From: an uncultured virus (IMG/VR IMGVR_UViG_646564563_000001)
Taxonomy: Duplodnaviria; Heunggongvirae; Uroviricota; Caudoviricetes
Direction: 5' to 3' (one strand)
IMG/VR virus record: IMGVR_UViG_646564563_000001
Length of the DNA stretch: 21,692 bases
Under the pieces are notes generated by a model. The model had not been told where the DNA came from, did no database searches, and worked only from the letters and a program-made list of their open reading frames with translations. The first letter of the stretch is position 1; each line of letters starts with the position of its first letter. The translations under genes were made by a program, and so were the position numbers. Positions 784 through 3,829 of the stretch are shown here, piece after piece.

Positions 784-785
784 CG

Positions 786-814
786 TTGAAATCTCCCTTG
801 GTTTCGGCTATATT
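786..814 (+). promoter_or_regulatory. Sigma70-type promoter antisense to the late operon
   Basis: TTGAAA (786-791), 17 nt spacer, TATATT (809-814). AT-rich patch in GC-rich DNA. Confidence 0.65.
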
Positions 815-819
815 TCTGG

Positions 820-896
820 TGTCGAAGCGGTGCGGCGGTGACTGCCCTTCTAGCCGCTTCGGTGCTGCGACCCGATCACCCGGGCCGCTTTCGTTT
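820..896 (+). ncRNA. Candidate structured antisense small RNA (about 75 nt)
   Basis: Follows the promoter. Stem CGAAGCGG/CCGCUUCG (823-830/854-861) is extended by G-U pairs that form only on the + strand. Second hairpin at 867-888 is followed by UUUCGUUU. Confidence 0.45.
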
Positions 897-2357
897 CCAG
901 AGCAGCTTTCCGACCCTTTGCTTGTCGATGTGGCTGTAGTCCGGCTTGGCACGGTTGAAGGATGCGTAACCGGTGACTGCTCCCCACGCCTTGCGCCCGA
1001 CCTCAAACAGCACTTGCAGCGAAGTCGTCTGATCGACTTTGATGTAGCGCCGCGTCACCATGAGCTCTTCATAAGCCGGGAAGTATCCGGAGACTGCGTC
1101 AACTGGTACCGCGCGCACGCCCATCCAGATTTCATCCGGGTTCATGATCGCTTCAGCCAAGAGCGCCGCATATTCACCGCGGCCGCGTTTCATGAGCTTC
1201 GACGCTCCAGAGTGTTCAAGGAAAAGCTGCTCGGAAATGACGATCGTCGCTCCGGATTTGTCCTCCCAAAGCGCAGCTTTCCCGACGTCGGCGCCAAATG
1301 GCTCAAGGAATGCCCTCAGATAATCAGGCTCAGGGAGACCTTCAGGCATGCGCTCTGCCGTGAACGGCACCGATGCCGCAAGCAGATCCGCCATCGGCTC
1401 CGCTTTGTCGATCGACACGACATGATGCCCTTTCAGATCTCCGGTCAAGATCGCACCCCCGTCATTGAGGAGCGCCGACGGCACAAGGCCGCGCTCCCAC
1501 AGATCGCCCGGCATGTAATCCCAGCCGTAGCCGATCCCCTCGGGAAGCTCGATCACCGCACCAGTGGCCCTGTCGATGTGCTTGACCATCGAAGTCTCAG
1601 GTGCCTTGTCCGGCCCGTCCTTGCCCATGCGCCGCAGATCACCGCGCGAGAGCGTCCGCACACCGCAGCTGCAGACCCAATCGTTCGGCGGGAAATGCGC
1701 ATCCCACCACGGATCGTTCCAGAACAGCACCAGGTTGTGCCAGGAGGTGTGCTCCGGCCGCGGGTTCAGCGGCACCCGGGTTTCTCCGTGGCGGTATTGC
1801 CAATAGGGCCGCACCTTGACCACATCCGGATCGCGCATCTGCCGCAACCTCCCGGCCATGTAGCTCGTGCGGATGTTCGTCTCGAAAATGGTGCGGATGC
1901 GCCATTCGCGCCCGCCGTTGTAGGACCAGCCGTATTTTTCGACGAGACGGTCGAACTCGTCCGCGAAGGCCTTGATGTCGTAAGTGCGCGCGCCCTCGAT
2001 GATCGCCTGCTGGAACTCCTCCAGCATCGCCATGTCGGTGACCCCCGCCACGACAAAGGCGCGGTCGTGATCGCCCTGCATCGCATCCGTCCAGGCGGTG
2101 GTGGGCTTGCCCCGCTTTTGCGTCAGGAAATCGATCTGTTCGCGGAACTCCTGACGGGTCAGATCGACATCGGCAAAGCTGACGTCTTCCCAGTCCGCGA
2201 AGACCGCCTCGCGCCCCTCCAGCGCCGCCAGCTGCATCGCCTGGGAAAAGAGCGCGGCCAGCGCATCGGGCGTCCAGGTGGCGCCGATCTCCAGCACGGC
2301 CCTGGCGGCTGCGTCAAAATCCTCGGCCGTCTCGATCGCCTTGCGCACAGCGGCCAC
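876..2357 (-). CDS. Mu gpF (MuF) minor head protein with C-terminal PBECR2-like nuclease domain; start uncertain, probably reached by frameshift from the portal gene
   Basis: MuF motifs RAFVVAG, RTIFETNIRTSYMAGR, RPYWQYRH and FPPNDWVCSCGV. C-terminal PDEIW...RRYI...VTGY...QRVGKLLW. GTG start has no SD, and the frame stays open upstream past the portal stop. Confidence 0.9.
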   Translation of the reverse strand: MAAVRKAIETAEDFDAAARAVLEIGATWTPDALAALFSQAMQLAALEGREAVFADWEDVSFADVDLTRQEFREQIDFLTQKRGKPTTAWTDAMQGDHDRAFVVAGVTDMAMLEEFQQAIIEGARTYDIKAFADEFDRLVEKYGWSYNGGREWRIRTIFETNIRTSYMAGRLRQMRDPDVVKVRPYWQYRHGETRVPLNPRPEHTSWHNLVLFWNDPWWDAHFPPNDWVCSCGVRTLSRGDLRRMGKDGPDKAPETSMVKHIDRATGAVIELPEGIGYGWDYMPGDLWERGLVPSALLNDGGAILTGDLKGHHVVSIDKAEPMADLLAASVPFTAERMPEGLPEPDYLRAFLEPFGADVGKAALWEDKSGATIVISEQLFLEHSGASKLMKRGRGEYAALLAEAIMNPDEIWMGVRAVPVDAVSGYFPAYEELMVTRRYIKVDQTTSLQVLFEVGRKAWGAVTGYASFNRAKPDYSHIDKQRVGKLLWKRKRPG

Positions 2358-2452
2358 GCGCTTGGTGAAATGGCGCTCGGCCGCAGAGATGGCTTGATCG
2401 GTGATCCGCTCGACCGGCCCGCCCGGCTCAGCGAAGCAGACGTGCCGATGCG

Positions 2453-3829
2453 TCAGGCTTTTTTTTTGAGCCAGGATGCCGCGAAGGTCGGATCGTCTGT
2501 GACGAAGGGATCGGGCGCGGCGGGCGCGGTTCCGAAGGTGCGCCGGGCCTCGACCAGGGCATCGATCGTCTTGTCGCTCAGGCTCTGGGTGATGTCGAAC
2601 GACAGGATGTATTCCCGGGCCACGTCGTCATCTTCGAACCGAGCGGCCTCGGAAACGACGGTGCGGATCGCCCTGGCGGTCGCCTCGCTCGCCTCTGCCT
2701 GGCTCTTTTTCGTCGCAGCCTCGGCTTGCGCGTTCTTCGGCCGTTCGCGCCAGATCTTCGGCACGGCGGCCCCGGGAAGGTTGTAATCGACAATCCACTG
2801 CAGGAGCTGCTCGGTCAGCGTGCCCGAAAGCAGATCGCCGTCACCGTCGGCCAGCATATCCAGCATTTCCATATGCACTTCGCCAAGCGCGCGGTTGCCG
2901 CCGGACTCGCCTACCTGCGTCGTCAGCGTCTCGCCGGTGGTGGCGATCGAGATCTGCCGGTCCCAGTAGTTCAGGAACTGCTCATAGGTCACGCTGCCCG
3001 AGCGGCTCGCCTCCAGAAACTCGGCATCGGTGCCCATCGGCACGACAATGGCCGACGAGGTGACGGCGCCCTGCAGCGTGGTCAGCAGCTTGCGCTGCTC
3101 CTCGGGCAGCGATCCGATCGGGCTTTTGCCCACGATCGTCGGCCCGGCGAACTTTTCGAGGAAGTGCAGCCAGAAGGTGATGCCCTCACGCTTGAAGAGC
3201 ACCGGCCAGAACAGACGGCTGCCCAGCCCCAACCCATAGGGGTTTTCGCCCTTCACACCGACGCGGTGCACAATGAACTTCCGCTCGGGCAGCTCGATCC
3301 CTTCCGACATCGCCGTCCAGGTCAGCAGCCGCGGCCGCCATTCGGTGTCGAAGACAAAGCGGCGCTGGTCGATCGACTTGATCTTCACCGGCTTGATCCG
3401 GGCGCCGTCGCGGCCCCAGACCACTTCGCTCACCGCATAGCCCTTCAGGGTTGCGTCGAGCAGGCCCTTGCAGACCTGGTCAAAGGGCAACGCCCCGATC
3501 ATTTCGCGGACCAGCTCGGCCGCGGCCTTGTCGATCGGGCGGTCGCCCCCGGCCTCGACCTTCCACTCGCGCGAGATCAGCGCCCCCTTGCGCTTTTCGA
3601 GCATGGCCCCGGCATGGGTGTCGCGCTCGATCTCGTCATAGATCTTCAGCCCCTTGCCGCCGCCCTGGCTCAGCAGCGTGTCGTCAGAATTCTGCAGCAC
3701 CCCGCTGAAAAACGGGATGGTGATGTCGTTCCGGGCATTGGCGATCAGCGCCGTGGCCGCAGCGGGCAGGTTCTTGCGGGGCTGCTCGGCGAAAGCGGTC
3801 GGGCGAGGCTTGCGGTGACGGCGGCTCAC
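2453..3829 (-). CDS. Portal protein (DUF935, Mu gp29-like), 458 aa
   Basis: Motifs LLDATLKGYAVSEVVW, NPYGLGL, WLHFLEKFAGP, GETLTT and ALGEVH. Lies between terminase and gpF. Confidence 0.95.
   Translation of the reverse strand: MSRRHRKPRPTAFAEQPRKNLPAAATALIANARNDITIPFFSGVLQNSDDTLLSQGGGKGLKIYDEIERDTHAGAMLEKRKGALISREWKVEAGGDRPIDKAAAELVREMIGALPFDQVCKGLLDATLKGYAVSEVVWGRDGARIKPVKIKSIDQRRFVFDTEWRPRLLTWTAMSEGIELPERKFIVHRVGVKGENPYGLGLGSRLFWPVLFKREGITFWLHFLEKFAGPTIVGKSPIGSLPEEQRKLLTTLQGAVTSSAIVVPMGTDAEFLEASRSGSVTYEQFLNYWDRQISIATTGETLTTQVGESGGNRALGEVHMEMLDMLADGDGDLLSGTLTEQLLQWIVDYNLPGAAVPKIWRERPKNAQAEAATKKSQAEASEATARAIRTVVSEAARFEDDDVAREYILSFDITQSLSDKTIDALVEARRTFGTAPAAPDPFVTDDPTFAASWLKKKA
2459..2467 (-). 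other. A9 slippery run (candidate -1 frameshift or transcriptional slippage site)
   Basis: CTC AAA AAA AAA GCC TGA at the portal 3' end. The -1 frame is the gpF frame. Confidence 0.6.

Follow-up and report, generated by a model that had tools for sequence, protein, structure and literature searches.

In Mu (gp29/gp30), JBD30 and SPP1 (gp6/gp7), the portal is followed by a MuF-family protein; the portal retains its C-terminal domain, and the MuF protein is separate and non-covalently bound (PMC6316719 and PMC5576092; these and the other papers given by PMC number are cited for their passages on such systems). In SPP1, infection is aided by gp7, of which one to two copies bind the portal, and MuF proteins serve as carriers of effector tips (PMC5576092, PMC6316719). 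Constitutive fusions with the same domain order in one polypeptide have been described in the Microbacterium phage clusters EA3, EA5, EA8 and EB (PMC7302621), and portal-MuF-PBECR architectures, in which MuF is the virion carrier of an enzymatic tip and an RNase function is predicted for the PBECR domains joined to MuF and portal, have also been described (PMC5512222, section 19). Here we analysed a 21,692-nt stretch of DNA from an uncultured virus (IMG/VR record IMGVR_UViG_646564563_000001; the whole stretch is hereafter called the window), in which a run of nine adenines (A9) precedes the stop codon of a short portal gene, and the C-terminal domain that this portal lacks appears to have moved into the frame of the next gene, gpF. 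Comparison with related loci suggests that recoding at the A9 run very probably makes both a short portal and a long portal-gpF fusion, whatever the mechanism. The constitutive portal-MuF and portal-MuF-PBECR fusions are plain single genes in the accounts cited, whereas here a slip site would make the fusion partial.

The nearest mechanistic counterparts lie outside phage heads. In Thermus thermophilus dnaX (tau/gamma), a coding run of nine A has stops nearby in both shifted frames and gives long and short products with a common N-terminus in one oligomeric machine (PMC5009743, PMC1088944), a layout shared by the in-frame relatives described below. Nine A/T is also the threshold given for slippage by bacterial RNA polymerase (PMC5009743, PMC1088944). 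Unlike dnaX, which encodes a replicase component, the present locus is a phage head gene, the long form in the window needs a slip, and recoding is here predicted from sequence. The second counterpart is tssM, a structural family that is split in Citrobacter rodentium and in frame, with nine A, in T6SS-3, a type VI secretion system of Yersinia pseudotuberculosis, around a poly-A run; each gene gives two lengths with 15-25% slippage, and C. rodentium needs both forms (PMC4256274). Whereas tssM comprises two cases in a secretion-system membrane protein, we found more than 100 junctions with about ten swaps between the two arrangements, and what the long form gains here is a head protein together with a predicted RNase. 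Recoding is also used in phage tail chaperones (G/GT) and in capsid/tail extensions, where it sets the ratio of two virion-assembly proteins that share an N-terminus; those frameshifts are ribosomal and occur on phased motifs (PMC5009743).

The first-pass annotation of the window had proposed portal-gpF recoding as something not previously known, which holds only in part. The GenBank record of phage RcapMu (JN190960) remarks that the portal is short, that a 'possible +1 frameshift would allow readthrough', and that no good ribosome-binding site precedes the MuF gene; this is a one-line guess, and the shown part of the note gives no conservation, mechanism or in-frame mirror. Beyond that record we found no description of portal-gpF recoding in the literature, judged by titles, abstract starts and passages, with supplements (e.g., the GeneTack tables of PMC3711429) outside this scope. 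A literature search for 'DUF935' and 'frameshift' gave no paper, and the word 'portal' was absent from the main text of PMC3711429 as retrieved and from 300,000 characters of the review PMC5009743. Term look-up in the retrieved text found no portal frameshift in a survey of R. capsulatus phages (10.1101/2021.08.04.455094), PMC3483164 or PMC3025963, and no mention of frameshift or slippage in PMC5576092. The slippage mechanism (dnaX, tssM), the constitutive portal-MuF fusions and the RcapMu guess are thus already known; added here are an in-frame mirror form, repeated flips in and out of frame, and cultured phages for testing.

The window belongs to a Mu-like prophage carried by a genome of 3.87 Mb (G000). 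The genes run on the minus strand in the order terminase (phrog_38), three small ORFs, portal (3829-2453), the gpF frame (to 876) and a gpG-like gene. The features of the junction are as follows.

2453..3829, minus strand: portal gene, Mu gp29-type, short form (458 aa, about 50.5 kDa), without the usual C-terminal helical domain.
2459..2467, minus strand: A9 run, the putative slippage site (T9 on the plus strand), read as codons AAA AAA AAA, one codon ahead of the portal stop.
2453..2455, minus strand: portal stop TGA in the 0 frame, ending the short product.
2199..2456, minus strand: start-less segment in the -1 frame, by profile match the displaced portal C-terminal helical domain (FAE...LAALEGR).
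2426..2428, minus strand: TGA closing the third frame (A8 or A11 transcripts), 10 codons past the run.
2355..2357, minus strand: annotated start of the gpF frame, the first GTG in that frame, without a Shine-Dalgarno (SD) sequence and not conserved.
1659..2015, minus strand: MuF domain (gpF / SPP1 gp7-like; PF04233, 35.2 bits against a cut-off of 29.6; phrog_220).
894..1313, minus strand: C-terminal PBECR2 domain, predicted RNase fold (PF18810, 103 bits against a cut-off of 27.1).
876..3829, minus strand: whole recoded unit after a one-base shift, predicted portal-C-domain-MuF-PBECR2, 984 aa, about 110 kDa.

The portal ends CTC AAA AAA AAA GCC TGA on the minus strand, with A9 at 2467-2459, and the gpF frame is the -1 frame relative to it, open from 2627 to 876 and so through the run. 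A one-base shift at the run joins 457 and 527 codons into 984 aa, and the natural single-ORF counterparts in relatives are about 915-985 aa long. On these points, namely the position of A9, the 458-aa portal, the open -1 frame without ATG, GTG or TTG before the SD-less GTG at 2357, and the length of the fusion, the first-pass annotation read the sequence correctly. The portal core domain is present (PF06074, 344.6 bits, residues 62-388; also phrog_113) and matches the solved structures 9khx_X and 8rka_A, while no matching solved structure was found for the gpF-frame protein. Portal identity is 99.6% to RcapMu, 95.2% to RcWaterboi and 58.7% to Rhizobium phage RR1-B. PF04233 directly downstream of the portal together with the C-terminal effector PF18810 gives the layout of MuF polymorphic effectors; for BECR domains, the active-site criteria are a His within the helix at the N-terminus plus a Ser/Thr (PMC5512222, section 19).

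The start-less segment carries the signature of a portal end. A profile built from 20 ordinary portal C-termini matched residues 8-86 of the -1 frame (E 1.2e-9), which bears out an earlier impression that the segment resembles the helical portal C-terminus, and among related loci it matched 69/80 segments after the run and 0/80 before it. In the 99 nt past the stop, compared across 38 equally spaced relatives, variation in the gpF frame fell mostly on third codon positions (entropy 0.63/0.46/1.20 by position). Codon differences of a single base in these relatives were 6313 synonymous to 2890 non-synonymous in the gpF frame, against 1626/7772 and 1083/8036 in the other frames, and stops after the run occurred in 0/38 relatives in the gpF frame and in 37/38 in the third frame. 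By these measures, the segment is protein-coding and represents the displaced portal C-terminal domain. Portal residues about 365-440 (window about 2510-2735, minus strand) form a helical extension, carried by this clade's portals ahead of the run and unlike the ordinary Mu-type linker; its likeness to the C-domain is non-significant (E 0.068).

We then compared the junction across loci from viral contigs, genomes, metagenomes and named phages. From 295 loci, 83 repeated junctions, 28 without a portal or MuF match and four with odd spacing were removed, leaving 180 junctions, with 17 distant loci set aside; the 180 include L001, whose portal is 100% identical to that of the window, and the RcapMu record. 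Fifty-six of the junctions were of the ordinary Mu type, with the C-domain inside the portal and MuF separate, and none of these had an A-run of at least 7 ahead of the C-domain (0/56). Eighty-four were split in the -1 direction with a run, the arrangement of the window, and five were split in the +1 direction with a run of 8, 10 or 11. A further 23 were fused in frame and all retained A9. The remaining 12 had no run: eight were split (4 ATGA, 3 GTGA, 1 TTGA) and four were fused (L159, L206, L276 and L280, in-frame portal-MuF fusions without a homopolymer of at least 6). In all, runs of at least 8 A were present at 112/180 junctions, and 103/112 were exactly nine, so that the A-run and the -1 offset, proposed earlier as a check on relatives, proved to be widely kept. 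The A9 runs stood in all three codon phases: in the -1 split loci 61 were in phase 0, one in phase 1 and 18 in phase 2, and in the fused loci 20, three and none, respectively.

The in-frame mirror form is the decisive comparison for predicted recoding at the run. The 23 fused loci make the long protein without any shift, yet they retain A9, and a single added A leads to a stop within 4 codons in 21/23 (background 18%). The short product would end at nearly the same place in both arrangements, with a median of 100 residues past core position 362 in the fused forms and 103 in the split forms. A minority fusion, as first proposed, is the predicted scheme for the phage in the window; the 23 relatives encode the fusion in frame, and there the run would give the short portal instead. 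In a protein search for portal-MuF fusions, the junction read KKK in 56/81 and VKKN or QKKT in others, and the most distant fusions (30-37% identity) had no junction motif of the KKK, VKKN or QKKT type. We predicted that QKKT hides an A9 in phase 1, and this held for L155 and L156, both in frame with a phase-1 A9 and both reaching a stop 2 codons after an added A. For L044, a natural in-frame fusion, AlphaFold2 gave a low-confidence model from a 15-row alignment (mean pLDDT 52, pTM 0.32); in this weak model helices 401-413 and 444-471 flank an unstructured stretch that contains the Lys run.

Split and fused loci are mostly separated by indels beside the run, not by the length of the run. On a FastTree phylogeny of 178 rows, the fused-with-run state required 10 changes, at least 7 of them forced by well-supported branches; on a smaller quick IQ-TREE, the in-frame state required 7 changes, at least 4 forced. 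Since the run was retained through about ten swaps between split and fused, the lineage preserves the capacity for both lengths rather than one layout.

The same comparison bears on the proposal that no fusion is made, and that a C-domain-gpF protein starts separately, through translational coupling at a CTG that shares bases with the portal stop (CTGA) or at GTG 2357, with the run an aid or a relic. The window and 36/47 phase-0 split loci have this CTGA overlap, and seven run-less relatives use ATGA or GTGA here, so a separate protein is viable. The L065 junction combines an A10 run with a GTGA overlap start, which counts towards a restart and could mark a slippage/restart intermediate. However, no NTG is found at the stop in 11/47 phase-0 and 12/12 phase-2 split loci, and the 23 in-frame fusions keep A9, with its early stop after an added A, while needing no restart at all. 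Downstream starts are not conserved either: among 62 split relatives, 24 different positions are seen for the first in-frame start, and 15/62 have none in the gpF frame within 180 nt; no GGAG, GAGG or AGGA was found upstream of GTG 2357. An independent gpF start in homologues had been named beforehand as a possible refutation of the fusion; none is conserved, with the run-less ATGA/GTGA relatives the cases in which a restart is used. As an explanation of the run, we consider a separate start improbable.

The A9 run itself is unusual in its surroundings. Among the A/T runs of the genome, 43 are of 7, two of 8 and one of 9, the portal site being the only run of at least 9. Contigs from eight sequencing runs (6 RNA, 2 DNA) agree with A9 without any indel, although some may be the source of the window DNA, and the contigs of the RNA runs (6/6) carry A9 only; contigs lose minor variants, so they are neutral on slippage. 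Elsewhere in these genes (80 loci), 71% of Lys codons are AAG and AAA-AAA makes up 12/134 Lys-Lys pairs, and the coding strand of 578 kb from the 80 loci contained no second run of at least 8 A. The flanks of the 112 runs are also constrained, with a pyrimidine at -1 in 112/112, C at -3 in 105/112, C or G at +1 in 111/112 and C at +3 in 91/112, and this DNA context, conserved across phases, may tune slippage. The RcapMu record reads CTAC followed by A8 (JN190960; L081:4361-4371), where the window (2459-2469), the contigs and RcWaterboi read CTC followed by A9; the RcapMu reading looks as if two bases next to a homopolymer had been swapped.

Two accounts would place the run outside decoding in the present sense. 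Homopolymers slip during replication, and nine of the 112 runs differ in length, as would suit a DNA phase-variation tract that toggles the gpF-RNase cargo among phage progeny. Nine A in 103/112, split and fused loci that differ mostly by indels beside the run, and A9 alone in the contigs of the eight runs make such toggling very improbable. The second account would have the run selected as a Lys-Lys-Lys motif, as the U-tail of an antisense terminator, or not selected at all but produced by an assembly error. The KKK junctions of the 56/81 full-length fusions and a terminator-like hairpin at 2439-2454 on the plus strand are in line with it. The protein reading varies (KKK, VKKN, QKKT), whereas the DNA run is constant and AAG is avoided within it, and an assembly error, which had been raised at the outset as a homopolymer error or mutation, is excluded because 8/8 contig sets are free of indels and 103/112 run-bearing relatives have exactly A9. 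We therefore give a role unrelated to decoding hardly any weight. The antisense terminator was rejected as a candidate: a hairpin ahead of the T-run was found in only 19/112 against 11.8 expected; a sense-strand hairpin ahead of the run was found in 11/112.

Taken together, the run probably works like those of dnaX and tssM. Several properties expected of a slippage site are found in combination: at least nine A/T within coding sequence, a run kept across phases and against codon bias, and early stops in the non-extended frames, in counts that are inflated by kinship. We infer, from the comparison of sequences, that slippage occurs and that it is transcriptional: RNA polymerase slippage at A9, adding an A, is the probable source of a short portal and a portal-gpF-PBECR2 fusion. 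The A9 mRNA would give the 458-aa short portal, and where polymerase adds an A to part of the transcripts, the A10 mRNA would give the 984-aa portal-C-domain-MuF-PBECR2 fusion. Polymerase is favoured over the ribosome because the length of the run is conserved while its codon phase is not. In 83/84 split loci a stop closes the third frame within 16 codons, against a background of 33%, and the T-ending codon that makes this stop at F[AS][ED] was found in 43/76, against a background of 12% and 8/46 in ordinary portals. Early closure of this kind would be expected if slippage also gave transcripts that are two A longer or one A shorter.

The same two products could come from -1 ribosomal frameshifting, either by tandem slippage of tRNA-Lys on A_AAA_AAA or by ribosomes sliding along poly-A, and the stop two codons on may assist. 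Every A9 phase holds an in-phase A_AAA_AAA, -1 is productive in split and fused loci alike, no A10 appears in the RNA contigs, and a cluster of insertion sequences has proven -1 frameshifting on A_AAA_AAA (PMC4066793). For this mechanism, however, seven A are enough, yet nine are kept in 103/112; in addition, the codon phase varies and a stop also closes the third frame. The E. coli A_AAA_AAG site is shifty owing to a sole tRNA-Lys (PMC5009743). In the host genome aragorn found only tRNA-Lys(UUU), and the shiftier A_AAA_AAG is in phase in just 4/112 runs. The -1 heptamer is thus present, whereas a conserved stimulator is lacking: an SD-like word upstream of the run was found in 0/80, and no conserved hairpin, pseudoknot or other downstream fold was found (mean z -0.34, -1.17 and -0.01 in three main groups; -0.18 for the 60 nt downstream in the window). 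The arms of a pseudoknot suggested by the first-pass annotation do exist, but they are not conserved, stem 1 being intact in 18/38 and stem 2 in 11/38 equally spaced relatives. We regard a ribosomal origin as rather unlikely. The original proposal of recoding to a fusion is thus strongly supported by the comparison, with polymerase slippage a better fit than a ribosomal -1 shift.

Several observations weigh against polymerase slippage at A9 or limit it. Every A9 phase holds the in-phase heptamer, and -1 is the useful direction for split and fused forms alike, which suits a ribosomal shift equally well. No slipped transcript or trans-frame protein has been seen, and the RNA evidence consists of contigs only. 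Nine of the 112 runs are not A9 (A8 in four, A10 in four, A11 in one), and five of the nine give a +1 offset. The run-less junctions, four fused and eight split (seven of these with ATGA or GTGA), imply that a mixed ring is not obligatory everywhere, and nor is a covalent link. The loci are also related, 61 of the 84 split loci sharing one arrangement and nearly all of these belonging to one clade, and this kinship means that all junction counts overstate independence.

Some observations concern more distant loci and the neighbourhood of the junction. The 17 distant loci (L138-L154, query P0101), which are outside the counts, had no A-run of at least 8 between portal and MuF. Three of them carry C7, G7 or G10 runs between the matches (L141:4301, L146:4239, L145:5157), and in two of the three the portal and MuF matches are in different frames; these may be slip sites, errors or ordinary separate genes. 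P0101, P0102, P0108, P0115 and P0119 are distant single-ORF portal-MuF proteins with a C-terminal PF01129 ADP-ribosyltransferase and without a Lys run. A search of 150 related genomes gave 20 with a portal match, also not in the counts; most of the close ones repeat junctions already known, and no A-run of at least 8 was found in the distant ones. In the window, a sigma-70-like promoter match (10/12) with a weak hairpin lies antisense in the gpF-gpG gap (785-814, plus strand), and the RcapMu record flags a 'potential -1 frameshift' in a small gene just upstream of the portal (window about 3889; L081:2941).

Portal rings are regarded as homo-dodecamers, and to our knowledge what gpF/MuF does in Mu-like heads, and in how many copies, is poorly defined. 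We propose that short and long portals would co-assemble in a ring of 12 subunits, so that the gpF-RNase cargo of about 59 kDa is carried into the head by only some of them. In such a history, fusion of an ancestral portal to gpF would have come first; the short portal would then have been restored by a slip site before the portal C-domain, and about ten times one-base indels near the run would have swapped the default form. The phage in the window would make the fusion as its minority product, with 2-3 long subunits per ring if slippage were 20-25% (a figure borrowed from tssM), and in the in-frame relatives the reverse would apply. Near-even output would make the flips near neutral; a nine-A cassette gave 40% shifting (PMC3711429). 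The initial suggestion that recoding fixes the stoichiometry of gpF on the ring is only partly supported, and is made doubtful by the ten swaps, the four fused loci without a run and the seven ATGA/GTGA restarts.

Our judgement is evenly balanced on the wider proposal that portal-MuF would be a further conserved class of structural recoding in phages, beside tail chaperones and capsid/tail extensions, in which slippage makes a mixed ring with some subunits tethering a gpF-RNase for delivery to the host, and in which the mixture is required, so that defaults flip while the run stays nine. As cultured phages (RcapMu-like, RcWaterboi and RR1-B) carry an A9-type site, the prediction is directly testable. 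If it is true, the portal and gpF annotations of this alphaproteobacterial Mu-like clade would be incomplete, with split loci missing the long form and fused loci the short one, and the repeated flips between split and in-frame forms would offer a natural experiment on the importance of the ratio. These phages would then build a mixed portal ring by recoding, with an effector tethered to the ring.

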